Shown here one piece after another: positions 16,361 through 32,972 of a DNA stretch of 33,177 bases (positions within the stretch are counted from its first letter, which is position 1; the number at the start of each line of letters is the position of its first letter). The stretch spans positions 1-33,177 of the forward strand of contig JACRKZ010000139.1 in the NCBI GenBank assembly GCA_016235455.1. Reading direction: 5' to 3'. This DNA is from Armatimonadota bacterium (GTDB taxonomy: Bacteria > Armatimonadota > UBA10988). A model generated the notes under the pieces. The model was not told the DNA's origin. It saw only the letters and a list, made by a program, of their open reading frames with translations, and searched no databases. Both the position numbers and the translations under genes were made by a program.

Positions 16361-17632
16361 CTGACCCTGAGTCACATCGTCAAGCCGAGTGTCCATCGGG
16401 ACAGGAGGCGACGATGGAGGCAGCGGCCTGGGCGGTGGAAGAGGCGGCGGGAGCGCAACTGGGTGATCGGCGGCGCAATGGGGCCTTCGCGAAGATCCTC
16501 ACGGCGCTGGTGAGCGGTGCTGGGCGGTCGTTCTCGGCGGCGCTGGGCGAGGCCACGCGGCAGTCGGCCAGCCTGCTGTTGCATCGGGAGGGGCTGAAGC
16601 CGAATGCCTTGTTGGCCGGACACTATCAGGCCACGGCGCGGCGTTGCTGCGCCGAACGGTTCGTGCTGGTCTCGCAAGACAGCACCACCTTCAACTACAC
16701 GCGACAGCGCGCCACCAGCGGGCTGGGCCGGCTGGCGGACACGTCCAACAGCCGCGGCCCGTGGGCCCACAGCGCGCTGGCGTTGAGCCCGGACGGGCGT
16801 GCGCTGGGGTGGCTGGCACTCGCTTTCTGGTCGCGTTGCGAGCAACGCACCAAGGCTCAGCGGCGCGAGCGCCCCCATGAGCAGAAAGAGAGCTTCAAGC
16901 GGGAGGCGACGCTGCGTGACGTGGCTCAGGCGCTACCACTCGACTGCCAGGCGGTGATCGTCTCGGACCGCGAGTCGGATGTCTTCGAGTACCTGCGCGC
17001 GCCGGTGCGCGAGGGGCTGGACAAGCTGGTGCGCGCGGCCTGGGCGCGGCGTTGTCAGGGCGAGGAGGGCCAGGTCATGGCTGCGCTGGCGCCGGCTGGC
17101 GGTGCGCTCGCCGCACTCCTGGCCGGCGGCGCGGCGCGCCGAAGTCGAGCTGTACGTTGTCGCCGCGGACGAGGTGGGCGCGCCGCCGGGCGCCAAGCCG
17201 CTGTCCTGGACGTTGCTGACCACTTGGCCGGTGGAGGACGCCAGCGGGGCACTGACCGTGCTGGACTGGTATCGCCGACGCTGGCGTGTGGAGCAGGCGC
17301 ACCGCGCGCTGAAGCTGGACGGCCACCGGGTGGAGCGGCTACAGTTGGGCACGGCGCAGGCGCTGCAACTGGCGTTGGCGACCTACTGGGTAGTGGCGTG
17401 GCGAGCCATGAACCCGGCATTGGAAGCGCGTGAGCATCCCGATCTGCCGGCCGACCAGCGGTTCGACCCCGACGAGCTGCAGGTGCTGTCGCGGCTGGCC
17501 GGCCTACGCTTCGTCGCCCAAGCCTGGTGTGCAGGCGGTGCAGCAGGGCTTGCTGTTATTGGCGCCGATGGTCACCTACCATCGTGCCCTTCGAGACGGA
17601 TGGCGCGATGTGGAGATGTGACACAAGATCAG
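16361..17632 (+). mobile_element. IS4-family (IS50/Tn5-like) insertion sequence, internally deleted, 1272 bp
   Basis: IRL CTGACCCTGAGTCACATC (16361-16378) and IRR reverse complement CTGATCTTGTGTCACATC (17615-17632), 15/18 identical and resembling IS50 ends. 8-bp direct repeat CCGCGAGC at 16353-16360 and 17633-17640. Confidence 0.9.
16414..17621 (+). pseudogene. Frameshifted IS4-family DDE transposase in three frames
   Basis: Frame 1 (16414 to about 17085): LGDRR, QDSTT, KES, DRESD. Frame 2 (about 17081-17503): WTLLTT and the YREK motif WYRRRWRVEQAHRALK. Frame 3 (about 17505-17621): KPGVQAVQQGL, with the stop inside IRR. Confidence 0.88.
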
Positions 17633-17698
17633 CCGCGAGCGGGGAGGGTCGGGGTGGGGGCCGCCGATCGGTCACCCCAGGAACGAGGACATGAACCG

Positions 17699-20494
17699 AT
17701 GCGAACTGCTATCCTAACGCTCTGCCTGCTGGCCTACCGCGCCACGGCCGCGCCAGTGGTCATCTGGGCCACCGATCCCGTCGGCCCTGGTCAGACCGTC
17801 GTGGTCACCGGCGACGGCTTCGGCGCCAAGCCGACGGTCGAGTTGACGCGGCTGCCCGACGATCCGGCGGGCGAACCGAGTGGGGCCGCCGTCATGTGGC
17901 CTGCGGTGGTGGCGAAACCGGAGGCACTGCAGGCTGGCGAGACGTCCCTGAAGTTCGTCGTGCCACCCACCTCCAAGCCCGGCGTCTACGCCTACCGCAT
18001 CGCCGGCGGCGCTGCGGGCCTGCTCAATCGGCCGCGCATCCATTGGCTGCAGGGCGACAACGGCGCGCTGGCGCGGCCGGGCGGGGGCCTCGACCTGTTC
18101 GGCGTGAATCTGGGCGGCGACGGCGCGATTGTTCGCCTGTCGGGCAAGCAAACGCGCCGCCTCAAAGCCACCGCCGCGGCATGCCGGCTGACGGTGACGC
18201 TGCCCGCCGACTTGCCGCCGGGCGACTATCAGGTGCAGGCGCACAGCGGCCTGGGCGGCCCGCTGGCCTGGAGCAAGCCGGTGGCGCTGACCGTGGCCAG
18301 ACCCGAAGTGTGGCCCGCGAAGGTCTACAACCCGCGCGACATGGGCGCCGAAGGCGACGGCTCACGAGAGGACACGCTGGCCATCCAGGCCGCGCTGGAC
18401 GCCGCGGGCCAGGCCGGCGGCGGCATCGTGCTGCTGCCGCGTGGCCGCTACACGGTCAAGGGCACGCTGACCATCCCGCCGCGCACGGTGCTGCGTGGCG
18501 CGGGCGCGGCCAGCACCTGCCTGTGCTGGCCCGACACCGATGATCCACCCCGGGAGATGGTCCGCGGCACCAACCGCTTCACCGTGGAAGACCTGACCAT
18601 CTACGCCGCCAACCAGCAGCATGTGCTCGTGGCCGACACGGGCGAGAAGCCTGATGCCGGCCACGTCGCCTTCCGCCGGCTGGTCATCCGCGCCAATGCC
18701 TACCGCGGCCACCTCAAGGAGGAAGAGGTCGACCAGCGCTTCCGCGCCAGCATGAAGCTCTCCACGGGCGGCGGCGACAGCTTGCGCGCCGGTGGGCCGG
18801 ACGTGGTGGTCGAGGACTGCGACGTCATGGGCACCGGCCGCGCTGTCTACCTCAGCCGCGTGAGCGGCGGGCGGGTGACCGGCAACCGCCTGGCCAACGG
18901 CCGCTGGGGCTGGTACTGCATCTCCGGCAGCAACGGCCTGGTCATCGCCAACAACCAGATCGTCGGCGCGGACCTGATGAGCACCGGCGGCGGGCTCAAC
19001 TGCCTGGATGGCTCCAACGCCAGCGAGAACGTCTACTATGCGAACAACAGGCTGTCGATGATGCACGGCTGGGACCGTGAATCGATGACCAGTGATGCCG
19101 GCGGCGGCCCGTACATCGGGGGCATCGCCTCCGCGGACGGTGTGAAGCTGACGCTGGCCACGGCTCCCAAGTGGGACCGCGACTGGTCGGGCGCGGGCGT
19201 GTTCTTCCTCGATGGCCGAGGCGCTGGTCAGGTGCGGCGGCTGGTCAAGCACGACGGCGCGGTGATCACGCTCGATCGCGCGCTCGACGTGGCGCCCGAC
19301 GCCAAGACGGTGATCAGCATCACCCAGTATCAGGGCCATTATCTGCTGCTGAACAACGACTTCTCCGACTGCGGTGCGGTGCAGTTCTACGGCACGGCCA
19401 TCGAGAACGTGGTGGCCGGCAACCGGGGTCAGCGCATGTCGGGCTTCAGCGCCTGGGCGCTGTGGTACTACGGGTTCCAGCCTGCCTTCTACAACCTGTT
19501 CGAGGGCAACCGGCTGAGCGAAGCCTACTACCACTGGACCAGCGCGGCGCCCAGCGCCATGGGCGTGGCCGGCCACCGACACGAGGGTTACGCCGGGCCC
19601 ATGAACCGCGGCTGCATCGTGCGCGACAACACGCTGGCGCACAACGCCATGGTCCGCGTGAGCGGCGCCGTGACGGACTGCGTGGTGGAGCGCAACGCCA
19701 TCAGCGACTCCGACGAAGGCATCTTCGTGGCCAACGAGGCGACCGGCGTGCTGTGCCGCGAGAACCGCTTCGACAATGTCTTGCGCCCGACCATGGACGA
19801 GCCCGCCGAGCGCGCGCTGAGGGCTGAGCGGCTCAAGCGCTACATCGGCGCCAAGGACCCGCTGCTGAAGCTGGACTTCGACACGCTTGACGGCAAGGTC
19901 TACCGCGACGGCTCGACCAACCACTTCGACGCTCTGCTGGTGGGCGGCGTGAAGCCCGAGCCCGAGGGCCTGCGCGGACCGGGCGTGCGCTTCGACGGCA
20001 CCGGCTACCTGCGTGTCGACGAGACAGCGGCCTTCAACGTGCCCGACGTGACGCTCAGCCTGTGGGTCAAACCCGACGTGGTCAGTGGTCGGCGCGGGCT
20101 CATCTCCAAGCGCTTGCCCGGCGGCGGCTGCCCGTTCGTGCTGGCTCAGATGGGCGCCAGCGTCACCTTTGAAGCGGCCGACGAGGCCGGCGGCTGGCCG
20201 TTCAACTTCGGCGGGCCGGCGGTGCTCAAGGTCGGCGATTGGACGCACATCGCCGCGGTGGTCAAGGCCGACACGGGCATCACGCTCTATGCCGGTGGCG
20301 TCAAGGTGGCCGAGAAGGCCATTGCCAAGCCGCGTGTGCCCAACGGCGATCCGCTGATCATCGGCCGCGAAGGCTGGGGCGGCGATCCACCCAAGGGCGA
20401 CACGCCGGGCTTCTACCTCGGCGCGCTCGACGAGATCACCGTCTGGGGCCGGGCACTGAGCGCCGAGGAGGTCGCGGCGCTGGCCAAGCGGTGA
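17699..20494 (+). CDS. Secreted right-handed beta-helix (pectate lyase 3-like) protein with N-terminal Ig-like and C-terminal LamG-like domains
   Basis: Signal peptide MRTAILTLCLLAYRATA. NPRDMGAEGDGSREDTLAIQAALD and LPRGRY glycosidase N-cap. Asn-ladder repeats. LamG hallmarks TLSLWVKP, WTHIAAV, GALDEITVWGRALSAEEV. Confidence 0.85.
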   Translation: MRTAILTLCLLAYRATAAPVVIWATDPVGPGQTVVVTGDGFGAKPTVELTRLPDDPAGEPSGAAVMWPAVVAKPEALQAGETSLKFVVPPTSKPGVYAYRIAGGAAGLLNRPRIHWLQGDNGALARPGGGLDLFGVNLGGDGAIVRLSGKQTRRLKATAAACRLTVTLPADLPPGDYQVQAHSGLGGPLAWSKPVALTVARPEVWPAKVYNPRDMGAEGDGSREDTLAIQAALDAAGQAGGGIVLLPRGRYTVKGTLTIPPRTVLRGAGAASTCLCWPDTDDPPREMVRGTNRFTVEDLTIYAANQQHVLVADTGEKPDAGHVAFRRLVIRANAYRGHLKEEEVDQRFRASMKLSTGGGDSLRAGGPDVVVEDCDVMGTGRAVYLSRVSGGRVTGNRLANGRWGWYCISGSNGLVIANNQIVGADLMSTGGGLNCLDGSNASENVYYANNRLSMMHGWDRESMTSDAGGGPYIGGIASADGVKLTLATAPKWDRDWSGAGVFFLDGRGAGQVRRLVKHDGAVITLDRALDVAPDAKTVISITQYQGHYLLLNNDFSDCGAVQFYGTAIENVVAGNRGQRMSGFSAWALWYYGFQPAFYNLFEGNRLSEAYYHWTSAAPSAMGVAGHRHEGYAGPMNRGCIVRDNTLAHNAMVRVSGAVTDCVVERNAISDSDEGIFVANEATGVLCRENRFDNVLRPTMDEPAERALRAERLKRYIGAKDPLLKLDFDTLDGKVYRDGSTNHFDALLVGGVKPEPEGLRGPGVRFDGTGYLRVDETAAFNVPDVTLSLWVKPDVVSGRRGLISKRLPGGGCPFVLAQMGASVTFEAADEAGGWPFNFGGPAVLKVGDWTHIAAVVKADTGITLYAGGVKVAEKAIAKPRVPNGDPLIIGREGWGGDPPKGDTPGFYLGALDEITVWGRALSAEEVAALAKR

Positions 20495-24986: not shown

Positions 24987-25637
24987 ATGATCAAGGCGGT
25001 GCTCTTCGACTTCGACCATACGCTGGTATCGACGCCCATCGACTTTGGGCTCATGCGCCGCAGCGTCGTGCAGCTCTGTGGGTCGTTCGGGGTGACCGTG
25101 CCCGAGCCGGATACCAAGCTGGTGCTGGAGATCGTCGACGAGGCCGTGGCACAGCTCGACCCGGTGGTTGGCGCGCGGCTGCGCGGCATGGCCGACAACT
25201 GCATTCGCGAGGTGGAACGCGGCGCCGCGCGCGGCGTGCTGCCCATCGCCGGTGTGGCCGAGGCGCTGGACCGCCTGCGGGCCGAAGGCCGGCTGGTGGC
25301 CATCATCACGCGCAACTGCCGCGAGGTGGTGCTCGCGGCGCTGCGACGCGTGCCGCTGGCCTATGACCTGCTGCTCACCCGCGACGATGTGGACAAGGTC
25401 AAACCCGATCCGGCGCACGCCTTGGCCGCCCTGGCCGCACTCGACACCGACCGCGCGCACGCGCTGCTGGTGGGCGACTTTCGGGCCGACATTGCCTGCG
25501 CCACCCGCGCTGGACTGCCCGGTCTCGGCGTGACCACCGGTGCCTCGACCGCTGAGGAGCTCTTTGAGGCCGGCGCCGTGGACGTGTTGACCAGTGCGGC
25601 CGGCGTGCCCGATTGGCTGGCGGCCAGGGAGTGGTAG
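24987..25637 (+). CDS. HAD-family hydrolase (phosphoglycolate phosphatase-like)
   Basis: Motif I LFDFDHT, motif II ITRN, motif III KPDP, motif IV VGDFRAD. Confidence 0.9.
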   Translation: MIKAVLFDFDHTLVSTPIDFGLMRRSVVQLCGSFGVTVPEPDTKLVLEIVDEAVAQLDPVVGARLRGMADNCIREVERGAARGVLPIAGVAEALDRLRAEGRLVAIITRNCREVVLAALRRVPLAYDLLLTRDDVDKVKPDPAHALAALAALDTDRAHALLVGDFRADIACATRAGLPGLGVTTGASTAEELFEAGAVDVLTSAAGVPDWLAAREW

Positions 25638-25639
25638 TC

Positions 25640-27466
25640 ATGAGCGCGGGCCGATTCTGTCCCGAATGCGGCAGCGAGAACCTGCCCGAGCGCCGCTACT
25701 GCCGCGAGTGCGGCGTCTGCTTCATCGATGCCTGCCCCGACTGCGGTGCCAGCAGTCTGGTTGGCGATGCCGCTTGCGCCGCCTGCCAACGCCCCCTGGT
25801 GGACGGCGATGGGACTCGCCTGACCGACTGGCAGCCCCGGTGGGCCGCTTGCGTCGAGGCGGCTTCGGGCCCGGCGCGCTACCACTTCCCCGAGCACTGG
25901 GAGCCGGGCGAGGCGCGGCTCGACCCGGCCGCGGTGGTGGCCAGCGAGAACCGCTTGGCCACGGTCGTCAAGGCCGATCTGAGCGGCTTCACCGCCATGA
26001 GTGAACTGCTCGGCGACCCCGAGGAAGTCACCATCATCATGAACCAGGTGTTCGAGCCCCTGGTCGAGGTGGTGCGCCGGCACGACGGCTACATCGACAA
26101 CTACGCCGGCGACATGATCATCAGTTTCTGGGGCGCGCCCAACGCGGTGGAGGCCGGCGCCGAGCATGCCGTGCGCTCCGCGCTGGAGATGCGCGCCGCG
26201 GTGGAGACGCTCAATGCGCGCGGCATCAGCCATGGCGTCGAGTTGGGCATCTCCACGGGCGTGGCCACCGGCGCTGGCCTGTGGGGCGAGGTGGGCACCG
26301 GCGCCAACCTGCGGCACACGCTCTCGGGTGAACTGGGCGACTACGCCGCGCTGCTCGAGAAGTACACCGATCGCGGCCATGTGGGCATCTGCCCGGCGAC
26401 GACGGCGCGCGTGCGTGGCCGCATCGCGGTGACGCCCATCGCCGACAGCCACGTGACGCCGCCGGGCGAGACCGAAGAGCAGCCCATCTACAACGCCGAG
26501 GCGCTGGCCGAGGAGCCCACCTGGCTGGAGCTGGCCGGAGCGGATACCGTGCCCCGCGCGGGCCGCGACAAACTCGGTCGCGAGCTGGCCGCGCATTGGC
26601 AGGCCGCGGCTGGCGGCGTGCGACGGTTCGTGCATCTGGCCGGCGAGCCCGGCTCGGGCAAGTCGCGCCTGGCCTACGAGGTGGCGCAGTTGGCGCTGGC
26701 CTCGGGCGCCCAGGTGTTGGCCGCCGGCGGGCGGCCGCTGTCGCGGGCCATGGGCTGGACTCTGGAACTGCCGCCCGTGCCGCGGACGCCGGCCCTGATC
26801 GTGCTCGACGGGCTCAACTTCGTCGACAGCTGGCCGCTGGAGCGCGTGCTCGACTTGCTGCCCGACCAGCCGGTGCTGGTCCTGACGGTCAGCCGCGACC
26901 GCCAGCCGGCGGCGCAGTTGCGGGCCGCCGGGCTGCATGTCGAGGCCTATGAGGTGCCGCCGCTCGACGCCGAGGCCGTGGAGGCGCTGGCGCAGCGCTG
27001 CCTGAGCCGCGAAGTGAGCGAGGCCGAGAGCGACTGGCTGTGGCACCAGAGCGAGGGCAATCCGCTGCTCGTGCGCGCGCTCTGCGGGCTGCTCGGCGGG
27101 GGCGCCACGGACGACGGCGCCGAACTGGAGCACAGGCTCGAGCGGCTGCCCTGGCCCATGCAGGAGTTCGCCGCGGTCGCGCTCGACCAGCTCTCGGAGC
27201 CGGAGCGTGCGGCGGCCTACGTGGCGGCGATGGCGGCCGACCAGGAACTGCGGCTGCGTCCCGAGGCCGTGGGCTGGGTGCTGGCCGACCCGCTGTGGTC
27301 GCGGCGGCTGGAGCGGCTGGAGGCCTTGGGGCTGGTGTGGCGCGAGGATGAGCCGACGGCCCTGGTCTGGCGGCACCGCTGCGTGCGCCGCGCCGCCGCG
27401 GCCCGGCTGATCGACACGGTGCGCGTGCAAATCGAGGCGCGGCTGGCGGCGATGCCCGAAGGATAA
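25640..27466 (+). CDS. Double zinc ribbon + class III nucleotide cyclase-like + truncated STAND-type ATPase protein
   Basis: Four CxxC pairs (CPEC, CREC, CPDC, CAAC), ADLSGFTAMSE, GYIDNYAGD, WGAPNA, GISTG, Walker A GEPGSGKS, SEGNPLL. Confidence 0.85.
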   Translation: MSAGRFCPECGSENLPERRYCRECGVCFIDACPDCGASSLVGDAACAACQRPLVDGDGTRLTDWQPRWAACVEAASGPARYHFPEHWEPGEARLDPAAVVASENRLATVVKADLSGFTAMSELLGDPEEVTIIMNQVFEPLVEVVRRHDGYIDNYAGDMIISFWGAPNAVEAGAEHAVRSALEMRAAVETLNARGISHGVELGISTGVATGAGLWGEVGTGANLRHTLSGELGDYAALLEKYTDRGHVGICPATTARVRGRIAVTPIADSHVTPPGETEEQPIYNAEALAEEPTWLELAGADTVPRAGRDKLGRELAAHWQAAAGGVRRFVHLAGEPGSGKSRLAYEVAQLALASGAQVLAAGGRPLSRAMGWTLELPPVPRTPALIVLDGLNFVDSWPLERVLDLLPDQPVLVLTVSRDRQPAAQLRAAGLHVEAYEVPPLDAEAVEALAQRCLSREVSEAESDWLWHQSEGNPLLVRALCGLLGGGATDDGAELEHRLERLPWPMQEFAAVALDQLSEPERAAAYVAAMAADQELRLRPEAVGWVLADPLWSRRLERLEALGLVWREDEPTALVWRHRCVRRAAAARLIDTVRVQIEARLAAMPEG

Positions 27467-30137: not shown

Positions 30138-31022
30138 GTGATGAACGGCGCGCCAAACTGGTGGTACCTGATGATCGGGCTCTGGTTGCCCGCGCTGGCC
30201 CTGCTGGCCATGGCGGCGGCCGGCGCGGTTGGCACTGTTGCCGAGGCGCGGCTGGTGCGGCTGTCGCGTTACGGTGTCTACTGGCTGCCCCGCATCCTGC
30301 CCATACCATGGTCGGCAATCACGGGCATCCGCGCCGAATCCGGGCTTTGGGTGCTGTCTACCGCGGCCGGCGACGTTCCACTGCCCGGCCGGCTCCGCGA
30401 CGTGGGCCCCTTGGTGACCGAGGTGCGGCGCCGCGCCACGGTCGGAGAGGCGGTGCCGCCGGCGCCACTGGGCAGCCAGATGCTTGGTTGGCTAGGCTTG
30501 GAGCCAGGCTACCGCAGGCAGGTCCGGCTGCAGCCTGACCCGCGAGAGAGGCAGCGACTGTTCGTGGCGCTGTGTGGCGTCGCCATGGCCGCATCCTTCA
30601 GCCCGATCTGCTTCGCGGTCGGCCAGAGCCTCGAAGGGCTGCTGCTGGTTGCGGCGGGCGCCTTCAGCCTCTGGCGCCTGGCCTTCCGCCGCCCGAACGC
30701 CGACCTCGCCTGGTTCGACGACGACTGCATGGAGTTCGACGACCGCCACGGCCGCCGCACCAAGCTCCCCTGGCACCAACTCATCTCCCTGTGCGACGAA
30801 GGCGACCGCTTCACGCTGGTCACCACCGCCCAAGACCTGACCATCCTGGCTGACGGCGAGGCGGCTGCGGCGGTCCGGCACACCGCCGAGCAGGTGCTCG
30901 CGGCGCTGGCGGCGAACGGCGGCTGGGCGGCGACACCGGGCGACGCGTCGCTGTCGCCGGCCGAGCGGCTGACGGGCGAGGCTGAGCGTGGGCTGAGCGT
31001 GACTTCAGGGCCGTCGGAGTGA
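30138..31022 (+). CDS. Membrane protein with two PH-like modules, paralog 1 of tandem array
   Basis: Hydrophobic segments followed by IPWSAITGIR and LPWHQLISL modules. C-terminal PGDASLSPAERLTGEAERGLS. Start uncertain (30138 or 30141). Confidence 0.75.
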   Translation: MMNGAPNWWYLMIGLWLPALALLAMAAAGAVGTVAEARLVRLSRYGVYWLPRILPIPWSAITGIRAESGLWVLSTAAGDVPLPGRLRDVGPLVTEVRRRATVGEAVPPAPLGSQMLGWLGLEPGYRRQVRLQPDPRERQRLFVALCGVAMAASFSPICFAVGQSLEGLLLVAAGAFSLWRLAFRRPNADLAWFDDDCMEFDDRHGRRTKLPWHQLISLCDEGDRFTLVTTAQDLTILADGEAAAAVRHTAEQVLAALAANGGWAATPGDASLSPAERLTGEAERGLSVTSGPSE

Positions 31023-31025
31023 GCC

Positions 31026-32048
31026 ATGCCAATGCAGACTGAGCCGCCGGACCCGTCGAGCCAGCCGAGGCAGCCGATAGGTGCTCGATGGTGGCTGGCC
31101 GCCTTGGCGGCGTCGGTTGCCGGCGTGATGTGCGGGTCGGACAAGTGGTTGGCCCTGTGGATGCTGATGTCCGCCGGCCCATGGCTGGTGCTGTACGCGG
31201 CCCACATGCATCCGGTGTTGGGCAATACGGTGTCGGTGAGCCGCCGAGGTGTGCTCATCGGCTACGCCTTGCGTTGTACGCCGTGGACAGAGATCATCGA
31301 AGTCAGGGAAGAGCCGGGCGGAGTCGCCCTTGAGACGGCCCAAGGAGTGCGACACTTGCCGGCCTGCTCCCTTCAGCTAGGCAGGTTGCTCAGCGAAGCC
31401 CGGCGCCGTCTCCAGCCACCCGCCGATCCGCCGCCGGCCGCCGACGCGGCGGGCATCGAGGCGCGGCTGGGCGTGGCCAGTGGCGCATGTCGTACAGTAC
31501 CGGGCGCACTCTCCCACTTCGTGGTCGTGCGAAGGGCCGTCCTGGCTGGCTGCGGCGCGGTGCTGGCGCTCTTGTGCCTGGACTACCGCTGGCGCCTCGA
31601 CGCCCGCAGCCTGGCCTTCAACGTGGCCTGTGTCGCACTCTTGGTTGCCGTATGGGGCGTGCTGCCGCTGGTCGGGCGGCGGACACTGGTATGCGATGGG
31701 CTGGGCCTGACCATAACGTCGCGCATTGGCCGACCCAAGTGCTTGCGTTGGGATGATGTGGTTGCATTGCGCGAGGAGCACGGCGGCTATGTGCTGGTTA
31801 CGAGCGTAGGCGACATCATGGTCGACTCCGGCGCCGACGGCGCGGCCGAACTCAAGCGCACGGTGGAGTACGTGTTCTCCACTCGCACGGAGGCGCCGGG
31901 CTGGGCGCCGACGCCGGGCGAGGCATCTCTGTCGCCCGCGGAGCGGCTGACGGGCGAGCAGAAGCGCGGGCTGAGCCAGACGGACGCATCCCAGACGGGA
32001 GGGGCAAGTCAGTGGCAACTGGACCAGGACCAGCAACGCAGCGGCTAA
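31026..32048 (+). CDS. Membrane protein with two PH-like modules, paralog 2
   Basis: TM pair + TPWTEIIEVR; TM pair + LRWDDVVALR. C-terminal PGEASLSPAERLTGEQKRGLS. Confidence 0.78.
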   Translation: MPMQTEPPDPSSQPRQPIGARWWLAALAASVAGVMCGSDKWLALWMLMSAGPWLVLYAAHMHPVLGNTVSVSRRGVLIGYALRCTPWTEIIEVREEPGGVALETAQGVRHLPACSLQLGRLLSEARRRLQPPADPPPAADAAGIEARLGVASGACRTVPGALSHFVVVRRAVLAGCGAVLALLCLDYRWRLDARSLAFNVACVALLVAVWGVLPLVGRRTLVCDGLGLTITSRIGRPKCLRWDDVVALREEHGGYVLVTSVGDIMVDSGADGAAELKRTVEYVFSTRTEAPGWAPTPGEASLSPAERLTGEQKRGLSQTDASQTGGASQWQLDQDQQRSG

Positions 32049-32084
32049 CCGAGGCGAACAGGATCGCCCTGGCCGATATGGCAG

Positions 32085-32972
32085 TTGCTTGGCGTCTCTC
32101 TGGGCCTGCTGGCGTCTTACTTTGTCTACAACCGGCCGTCGCCTTGGCTGACGGGCGGTGTCCTCGGTGCCACAATCCTGGTCGGCTCGCTGTTGCAGCG
32201 CCTATCGCGCGGACACGCTGACCGCCGCGGCCTGTCTCTGCCGTGCCGCGCACGGCCCATCCCCTGGTCCGAGATCACCGGCATCCGCGCTGAGCAAGGC
32301 AGGTGGCTGGTGGAGACGACGCGCGGCACGGTCGCTCTGCCGCGCTGGCTGACCAACAGCGGTGCGGTGGCGGCCGGGATTAGCCGCCAGTTCCAGGCCG
32401 CGGGCGCCCTGCCGAGTCGCCCGCCGGCCGACCGCGTTCGCGACTGGCTGGGCCTGGGCAACGAGCGTCGGCTCCACGTTGCGGGTGGCGTGCTGGTCGT
32501 GGCCCTCCATCGGCGTGCGGTGTGCCTGCTGGGCGGGCTGGCCCTGCTCCTGCTCGGCTTGGCGGAACTGCCGGCCGGCTTGGCGATCCTGGCTCCCATA
32601 CCGCTACTCGGTGGCGCCGCGGTAATCGCTAACTGCCTTCGGCGGGCGACCATGGCGGTGTTCGTCGACGAGGCTGTTATTGAGTGCGACACGCCAGCGG
32701 GCGAGCGCGGCAGCGTGCCATGGGAGGCGGTGTTGGCGGTGGTTGAGTCGCGCGGCTTCTTCGTGCTACAGACCGCCGACTACGACATCCGGTTCGCGAC
32801 CGGGGCGCCTGGAGCCGAAGCCTTGCGCCGTGCCGCGCTGGCCTACCTCGCCGCGCGCGAGGCGGCCGGCGGCTTCGTGGCCGGGCCGGGCGATACCTCG
32901 CTGTCGCCCGCGACGCGGCTGACGGGCGATGAGGATCGTTGGTTGAGCCAAGCGGAGACCCACGCCGAGTGA
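32085..32972 (+). CDS. Membrane protein with two PH-like modules, paralog 3 (start uncertain)
   Basis: TM pair + IPWSEITGIR; TM pair + VPWEAVLAV. C-terminal PGDTSLSPATRLTGDEDRWLS. Confidence 0.72.
   Translation: MLGVSLGLLASYFVYNRPSPWLTGGVLGATILVGSLLQRLSRGHADRRGLSLPCRARPIPWSEITGIRAEQGRWLVETTRGTVALPRWLTNSGAVAAGISRQFQAAGALPSRPPADRVRDWLGLGNERRLHVAGGVLVVALHRRAVCLLGGLALLLLGLAELPAGLAILAPIPLLGGAAVIANCLRRATMAVFVDEAVIECDTPAGERGSVPWEAVLAVVESRGFFVLQTADYDIRFATGAPGAEALRRAALAYLAAREAAGGFVAGPGDTSLSPATRLTGDEDRWLSQAETHAE

Follow-up and report, generated by a model that had tools for sequence, protein, structure and literature searches.

We analyzed a 33,177-nucleotide stretch of DNA (the window) that constitutes the entire contig C114 of a 6.5-Mb assembly of an Armatimonadota bacterium (69% G+C, 185 contigs; genome label G000). 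Near its end three genes encode membrane proteins with bacterial PH-like domains that share a C-terminal motif, described in the first-pass annotation of the window as a conserved stretch of 26 residues. Judging from the sequences, this motif is an array-specific variant of a wider two-box element, which we named the twin LS-box tail. The element is conserved at the peptide level, portable, confined to one lineage and predicted to be disordered. The reading that we favor, with a probability of about 45%, is that the tail is a cytoplasmic short linear motif for docking or modification which is recognized in trans by one shared partner. The three open reading frames (ORFs) are arranged in tandem, head to tail, and the pairwise identity of their products is about 30-35%. 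In window coordinates the features are:

30138 to 31022, plus strand: paralog 1, 294 amino acids, with a transmembrane (TM) helix, PH-like domain 1, a 'WLG' helix, a TM hairpin, PH-like domain 2, a terminal helix and the tail
30540 to 30686, plus strand: TM hairpin of paralog 1, predicted by AlphaFold as helices 135-154, 156-160 and 165-183
30705 to 30914, plus strand: PH-like domain 2 and terminal helix of paralog 1, directly upstream of the tail, with a predicted local distance difference test score (pLDDT) of 90-97
30921 to 30998, plus strand: tail motif of paralog 1, GWAATPGDASLSPAERLTGEAERGLS, pLDDT 45-58, modeled without secondary structure
30936 to 30962, plus strand: box 1 of paralog 1, PGDASLSPA, with the nearly invariant Ser at 30954-30956
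30984 to 30998, plus strand: box 2 of paralog 1, ERGLS, with R, G and S conserved in representative sequences
31026 to 32048, plus strand: paralog 2, 340 amino acids, with the architecture of paralog 1 and a longer acidic/Gln-rich end beyond the tail
31899 to 31976, plus strand: tail motif of paralog 2, with box 1 at 31914-31940 and box 2 at 31962-31976
32085 to 32972, plus strand: paralog 3, 295 amino acids, with the architecture of paralog 1
32871 to 32948, plus strand: tail motif of paralog 3, with box 1 at 32886-32912 and box 2 at 32934-32948, the box-2 Gly being replaced by Trp

The three tail stretches translate exactly as the first-pass annotation had given them, and in each ORF the motif sits 6-22 residues before the stop codon. 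A three-way alignment reproduced the reported 15 invariant columns out of 26 and the identity of copies 1 and 2 at 22 of the 26 positions. The conservation is indeed far above that of the rest of the proteins, where 14.7% of the ungapped columns (34 of 232) are invariant and the best non-overlapping 26-column stretch contains 9 invariant columns; the binomial probability of 15 or more invariant columns in 26 is 4.7e-7. When all six frames of the 6.5-Mb genome were translated, the strict pattern PG[DE]xSLSP proved to be restricted to the trio. Relaxed patterns and tblastn revealed many more paralogs with C-termini such as VPDAALSRA...ERGLSRAE. The peptide motif as such is real, but its 26-residue form is merely a local variant of a shorter two-box core that is present in hundreds of proteins.

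The wider tail follows the pattern [VI]P[DE]xA[LI]S[RPL]A-x(6-9)-[DE]RG[LI]S, in which two boxes are separated by 6-9 variable, mostly acidic residues and box 2 is followed by a short acidic end. Both boxes have the form acidic-x-small-Leu-Ser, and an Arg is located at position -3 of the second Ser. The bipartite character noted earlier was evident in 27 tails of the genome and in 154 representative sequences, with two nearly invariant Ser residues; in the alignment of the 27 tails only the box-1 Ser, the box-2 Arg and the box-2 Ser form invariant columns. A profile built from these tails matched 36 of 42,333 stop-to-stop ORFs at E<0.1. All except two of the matches (34) lie 30 residues or less from the stop, 7 of these 34 are from outside the profile seed, and the best E value with reversed sequences was 0.39. 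A profile of the PH body without the tail detected 41 ORFs, 28 of which carry the tail by profile and 8 more a twin R-G-L-S variant recognizable by eye (about 36 of 41). Proteins with 1, 2 or 4 PH domains have one twin-box tail each; the single-PH variants on contigs C98, C52 and C154 are members of the same superfamily.

When 1.84 billion cluster representatives were searched with a profile covering PH domain 2 and the tail, 580 matched at E<=0.001 and 273 at E<=1e-10. The two-box pattern is present in 142 of the best 150 of the 580 representatives; with the boxes delimited as in the search pattern, their spacing is 8-11 residues in 137 of the 142, and mostly 1-13 residues follow box 2. Among the 154 representatives box 1 contains Ala in 140, Leu or Ile in 151 and Ser in 152, both exceptions at the Ser being gaps, and box 2 contains Arg in 147, Gly in 142, Leu, Ile or Val in 151 and Ser in 145. 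The sole recurrent substitute at the Ser positions is Thr (RGLT in 3 of 150 representatives, R[SA]LT in 2 of 14 tails of the ARM/HEAT-repeat proteins described below). Over the whole 294-residue protein, 7 of the 25 most conserved positions fall in the tail. A PH subfamily on contigs C120 (245-6706) and C90 (678-4252), found also in P0114 and P0134, has the residues [VLTN]-D-A at the very C-terminus, behind the tail. Subfamily members without the twin-box tail still have this ending, which may be a second, independent terminal motif.

The first-pass annotation had proposed that occurrence at the C-termini of unrelated proteins would establish the motif as a portable tag. A profile search of the proteome and of related genomes demonstrated that the tail also ends ARM/HEAT-repeat proteins which are otherwise unlike the PH proteins. 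Five tandem genes on contig C7 encode soluble ARM/HEAT-type proteins ending in [DG]R[AS]LSPA...RGLS[PR], in which no N-terminal hydrophobic segment was seen by eye. AlphaFold modeled a C7 protein as an all-helical solenoid at pLDDT 91.3, whose tail is again a coil without secondary structure (pLDDT 54-56), and Foldseek matched the model to armadillo-repeat proteins (E 1e-5) and also to PR65 of PP2A. In an hhalign comparison of the C7 family with the PH family only the 31 tail columns align (probability 74%, E 2.9e-5). Moreover, the PH-body profile without the tail gave no match (E>10) to the five C7 proteins, to a membrane protein encoded on C145 or to a pentapeptide-repeat protein encoded on C66. 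The C145 protein, which lacks PH similarity, matches the tail profile at E 1.2e-7, and the pentapeptide-repeat protein (PF00805, 110.7 bits) matches it marginally (E 0.024), at a distance of 28 residues from the C-terminus. Full-length tailed ARM/HEAT homologues, often in tandem, are present in all five family relatives of the window genome. As in a short linear motif, the core is short (two boxes, 5-9 residues) and lies in a region that is predicted to be unstructured on two unrelated carriers; it is conserved over a diverging background and recurs on an unrelated fold.

The distribution of the tail is narrow. The profile of PH domain 2 plus tail matched 40 of 301 genomes of the phylum, and matches running through box 2 were found only in the GTDB family of the window (5 of 5 relatives and G000) and in one genome of the same order, which has a simpler form with two A-L-S boxes without Arg-Gly. 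Leaving aside one weak match in G284 (22 bits, profile positions 25-99), the profile covered the PH part only in the remaining matched genomes. At seven loci from other families the proteins stop directly behind the PH helix and have no tail. The tail carriers span five other genera, and with the tail profile alone the five family relatives yielded at least 6, 21, 23, 9 and 16 matches. At three loci from other families of the phylum (L034, L042 and L044 in G189, G274 and G180) distant PH relatives of about 490-560 amino acids end in A-E-R-G-W-[AG]-stop after the PH helix; this ending recalls box 2 (E-R-G-L-S), without the Ser and without box 1. In a genome of the same genus (L047; G001:C314, 10293-15081, minus strand) three homologues of the contig C3-type proteins, each of about 515 amino acids, show a box 2 that is degenerate and lacks the Arg (S/G/T-G-L-S-V-A-P-A-P); a longer, Pro/Gln-rich end comes after it.

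Similarity between tandem paralogs mixes selection and gene conversion, and the two need to be separated. Selection on the peptide had originally been deduced from synonymous differences between the three copies. The pairs named (TCG/TCT, CCG/CCC and GCC/GCG) were confirmed, but the argument is weak for the trio, and it is in other arrays and in the wider family that peptide-level selection was seen. In the trio the synonymous divergence (dS) of the tail is 0.27-0.45 and that of the body 1.1-1.5, a three- to fourfold difference. Identical codons are used at 16 of 22, 12 of 17 and 12 of 15 conserved tail residues (71-80%) compared with 39-47% in the body (permutation P 5e-5, 0.014 and 0.003). 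The array on G005:C13, with a dS of 0.07-0.23 in the tail and 1.0-1.3 in the body, has even more strongly homogenized DNA. Low tail dS and high codon identity in the trio indicate that its 3' ends were partly homogenized by gene conversion. In an orthologous trio of another assembly (P0155, P0156 and P0157; 62, 41 and 52% identical to paralog 1) all members share an identical last helix (AAAAVRHTAEQVLAALA) followed by GDASLSPAERL..ERGL[SR], a homogenization of the 3' ends over about 60 codons; P0155 has an Arg instead of the second invariant Ser. Homogenized 3' ends best explain the array-specific linker (PAERLTGE) and the 22 of 26 identical positions, and the local tail similarity in the trio and in G005:C13 is partly not due to selection.

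These observations could be extended to an explanation at the DNA level only, in which the 3' ends of the tandem genes are kept alike by recent gene conversion or by a nucleotide element and the peptide has no function; the low tail dS of the trio and of G005:C13, the permutation P values of the trio and the shared 3' ends of the orthologous trio would fit such an effect. As a full explanation it is contradicted, and we consider it most improbable. The core boxes persist in hundreds of proteins under 50% identity, in arrays with saturated synonymous sites in the tail, in two otherwise dissimilar families on different contigs and in five other genera. An effect on DNA alone stands for the array-specific linker residues only. 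In the arrays C167, C3 and C7 the tail dS is 0.7-2.1, at least at the level of the body (saturated), and for the closest pair of each array the ratio of nonsynonymous to synonymous divergence (dN/dS) is 0.15-0.27 in the tail versus 0.54-0.96 in the body; pairs with more divergent tails show a tail dN/dS of 0.25-0.64. The invariant Ser residues of the 27 tails use both Ser codon families (first Ser: TCN 25, AGC 2; second Ser: AGY 22, TCN 5). Saturated dS, low tail dN/dS and the use of both codon families argue that the core boxes are held by peptide-level selection. The codons are at the same time unusually uniform, as TCG encodes the first Ser in 20 of the 27 tails, AGC the second Ser likewise in 20 of 27 and GGG the box-2 Gly in 14 of 21; this may reflect common descent only, yet a constraint at the DNA level is also conceivable. 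The annotation had named restriction to the three genes together with recent gene conversion as the outcome that would overturn its proposal: the half on gene conversion holds in part for the trio, but the restriction fails.

The proteins carrying the tail were further characterized by structure prediction and by comparison with domain databases. The AlphaFold model of paralog 1, calculated with an alignment of 114 sequences, has a mean pLDDT of 80.8. It starts with a helix at residues 8-36 (N-terminal membrane helix), followed by a strand-rich module at 40-100 with strands at 40-82, a short helix at 112-119 bearing a conserved W-L-G, the TM hairpin, and a second strand-rich module consisting of strands at 190-237 and a helix at 240-259. 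Both strand-rich modules are closed by a helix and predicted at pLDDT 82-97, and residues 260-294 are left as a coil without secondary structure at the low confidence given above. This model is consistent with the earlier description of the tail as polar and probably disordered. Foldseek comparison of the model with the PDB gave weak PH, PTB and FERM-F3 matches (E 0.01-0.1, none at E<=0.001; probability up to 0.95 for single PH domains). The Pfam family bPH_6 (PF10756, gathering cut-off 22) scored 14.8, 21.0 and 26.8 bits with paralogs 1, 2 and 3, so that only paralog 3 lies above the cut-off; this protein also has a YcxB-like match of 21 bits. Among 21 other tailed ORFs bPH_6 was found at E<=0.05 in 7 and above the cut-off in 2.

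A scan of NCBIfam with the trio proteins gave nothing useful; in a profile search of PDB sequences all matches, to Kelch, FERM and unrelated entries, fell on the PH part. A word-indexed protein search with paralog 3 returned paralog 3 alone and, with the family alignment, 6 proteins, none of them with a named source. The ESM Atlas contained unnamed clusters only, one with bPH_6 on 12% of its members, and a search of the genome contigs with the trio alignment gave 598 pattern matches without any relatives. The W-L-G[IL] motif (30489-30497 in paralog 1 and equivalent positions in paralogs 2 and 3) lies on the short helix between PH domain 1 and the TM hairpin; it is conserved throughout the family (W in 77%, L in 90% and G in 76% of 114 sequences) and retained in the single-PH variants.

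The TM hairpin places both PH-like domains and the tail on the same side of the membrane. Its loop is nearly free of Lys and Arg (on average 0.3 over 114 homologues, compared with 1.6-2.2 in the flanks), and by the positive-inside rule this distribution suggests that the PH-like modules and the tail are cytoplasmic.

In nearly all cases the tail comes after the C-terminal helix of a PH-like domain, and the hydrophobic-Ser-x-x-acidic form of its boxes resembles a helix N-capping box. Both features would fit a tail that forms the structured end of the PH-like domain itself, or that of a catalogued short C-terminal domain, for instance SHOCT. We regard this as very improbable in view of a coil modeled at pLDDT 45-58 beside a domain at 90-97, of the same tail on an all-helical solenoid and of PH relatives outside the order that lack it. 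The annotation had also considered that its motif might be the final structured element of a known domain; the coil model, the lack of a Pfam match and the second, unrelated fold are at odds with this. When the 27 tails were compared with Pfam at E<=10, neither SHOCT nor another plausible family was detected, and NCBIfam gave no match beyond one at chance level. The earlier statement that the tail is not a recognized sorting signal also holds, since no Pfam or NCBIfam model matches, including the models of C-terminal sorting domains. A full-text search of one literature collection retrieved no description of the motif; the matches to RGLS were abbreviations for other things. Within this scope the tail is undescribed, and the closest described element is SHOCT.

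A flexible, probably cytoplasmic tail with two similar boxes, Ser positions at which only Ser and Thr are exchanged, an Arg at -3 and about 40 carriers per genome, of unrelated folds, argues for recognition in trans by a shared reader or by a Ser-directed enzyme. In the reading favored here two kinds of carrier display the same tag, small membrane proteins (behind their last PH-like domain) and, independently of these, soluble ARM/HEAT-repeat proteins. Flexible and presumably exposed on the cytoplasmic side, the tag would be recognized by a partner, either a docking protein or an enzyme with the two Ser hydroxyls as its targets, such as a Ser kinase/phosphatase pair. A cell could in this way address or regulate dozens of different proteins via one handle, and the two serines may be sites of modification. 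A further-reaching version, that this uncultured order evolved its own cytoplasmic address-tag system, with a disordered twin LS-box tail on 20-40 PH membrane proteins and ARM/HEAT proteins per genome and a single reader or Ser-modifying enzyme, is possible but doubtful.

Together with the homogenized 3' ends and the uniform codons described above, several points weigh against the favored reading. No partner of the tail was found. The neighbors of 13 tail loci in the window genome contained nothing recurrent except glycosidase and sulfatase genes, and none of the 8 genes for Hanks-type kinases in the genome (Pkinase matches) is located on a tail-bearing contig. Furthermore, low pLDDT is no proof of disorder, and the organism is known solely from the 185-contig assembly. 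The nearly constant position behind a PH-like domain also means that the tail could work with this domain instead of an outside partner.

PH, PTB and FERM-F3 folds are classical peptide binders, and they are the sole, although weak, structural matches of the paralog 1 model. The tail may accordingly be imagined to dock on the PH-like (PTB-like) domain of a neighboring subunit or paralog, giving rings or chains at the membrane to which the tailed ARM/HEAT proteins would be recruited as clients. Domain and tail occur together in most PH-type members, and the 3' ends are homogenized within arrays, as expected if members must fit each other. The available text of PMC3581485, citing Xu et al. 2010, reports that bacterial PH domains form oligomeric rings, in some Bacillales via a short C-terminal helical extension; this precedent supports self-association. 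We nevertheless consider it unlikely. The PH bodies are only about 20-35% identical and the core of the tail is nearly invariant, a pattern more in keeping with one constant reader than with many diverged ones. In neither family did AlphaFold place the tail in cis on its own protein, even when given the 114-row alignment, and the number of tails is independent of the number of PH domains. A prediction of the complex between the body of paralog 1 (residues 1-260) and its own tail (255-294) with 114-row alignments scored 0.00; performed without controls, it is evidence neither way.

Conserved flexible cytoplasmic tails of membrane proteins are typical entry points for proteases, and the locus on contig C3 (32406-39956, minus strand; L012:12404-19957) offers a candidate enzyme for cleavage of the tail or for its use as a degron by a dedicated protease. 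Here three tailed paralogs with four PH domains are directly followed by three paralogous membrane proteins with a C-terminal Peptidase_C39 domain. With 38.3 and 26 bits, two of them exceed the cut-off of 22, and the third is recognizable by BLAST only. The residues Gln-x5-Cys, His and Asp, which we take to be the catalytic ones, are in place by eye. The next gene downstream of the peptidases encodes a protein of 1070 amino acids without a Pfam match. A general role in processing or degradation appears quite unlikely. Peptidase_C39 (PF03412) was found only at these two places in the genome, C39 genes adjoin 1 of the 13 tail loci compared, and no C39 homologue is located beside the tail arrays in 7 loci of five related genomes (G001, G002, G003, G005 and G006). 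Homologues of the peptidases are present in 1 of the 5 family relatives, all of which carry many tails, and the tail is C-terminal and lacks Gly-Gly, unlike known C39 substrates. The C39 peptidases were rejected as the general reader of the tail, as the pairing is unique to C3; they are a local possibility only.

The many-to-one logic proposed here is comparable to that of sortase and exosortase signals or of eukaryotic sorting and phospho-docking motifs, but would operate inside the bacterial cytoplasm. Sorting tags consist of a signature motif, a hydrophobic TM helix and a basic cluster and are carried by exported proteins. The twin LS-box tail has neither a hydrophobic segment nor a basic cluster; box 2 is followed by 1-23 mostly acidic or polar residues without a hydrophobic stretch, and the tail is probably cytoplasmic and occurs also on soluble proteins. 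It resembles LPXTG/sortase, PEP-CTERM/exosortase and GlyGly-CTERM/rhombosortase in being a lineage-specific C-terminal region on many unrelated proteins per genome (systems treated in PMC3237569 and PMC1569441). This logic of the sorting tags suggests a single reader for the tail as well.

Bacterial cytoplasmic motifs provide another comparison. The beta-clamp-binding motif, the C-terminal tip of SSB and the C-terminal peptide of FtsZ use few conserved residues in flexible tails to dock many proteins on one hub. The twin LS-box tail likewise has few conserved residues in a tail predicted to be flexible, but the sequences are unrelated, and these motifs are near-universal with known hubs whereas the tail belongs to one uncultured lineage. 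Double-glycine leaders cut by Peptidase_C39 are N-terminal, end in Gly-Gly (or Gly-Ala/Ser) and have their cognate peptidase encoded nearby. Leu-Ser and an acidic residue occur in both elements, and at C3 three tailed proteins are paired with three C39-type peptidases; unlike the leaders, however, the tail has a C-terminal position and no Gly-Gly, and its pairing with C39 is not conserved.

SHOCT (PF09851; Eberhardt et al. 2013, PMC3581485) is, in the available text of that paper, an element of about 30 residues that is overwhelmingly C-terminal, accompanies many unrelated domains including bacterial PH (9 proteins), is absent from model organisms and has no known function. The tail is similarly short, mostly C-terminal, portable and found behind bacterial PH domains. 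According to the same text SHOCT is widespread in bacteria and consists of two amphipathic helices in which a single Gly and a single Glu are conserved, whereas the tail is modeled as a coil, conserves two Ser and an Arg-Gly and is limited to one order. The C-terminal extension of the PH rings (Xu et al. 2010, via the same part of PMC3581485) is likewise a short element directly behind a bacterial PH domain. It is helical and part of the oligomer interface, and differs in this from a tail that is a coil in the model and occurs also without a PH domain.

The contig ends 205 bases beyond paralog 3. Upstream of the trio, a plus-strand gene at 25613-27466 encodes a protein of 617 amino acids with a double zinc ribbon, an adenylate/guanylate cyclase domain and an AAA_16/STAND-type NTPase. 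It is followed by genes for a xylose-isomerase-like TIM-barrel protein and an AMP-binding enzyme, which precede the trio. Further upstream a plus-strand ORF at 16414-17433 matches a transposase DNA-binding domain (PF14706, 27 bits) and runs, in a different frame, into the start of the plus-strand gene at 16979-20494 for a beta-helix/Laminin_G_3 protein of 1171 amino acids; one of the two overlapping start calls is probably wrong.

Short linear motifs organize much of eukaryotic cell biology, and to our knowledge few are known in bacteria, those being ancient and universal. In contrast, the twin LS-box tail looks recently evolved and confined to one lineage, and it is carried by about 40 proteins per genome with at least two unrelated folds and two almost unchanging Ser residues. 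If one reader or enzyme handles all of these tails, this would be a new bacterial way to address, assemble or regulate sets of membrane-associated proteins. Finding this reader would also provide a first route to function in a large family of bacterial PH-domain membrane proteins that lacks annotation.

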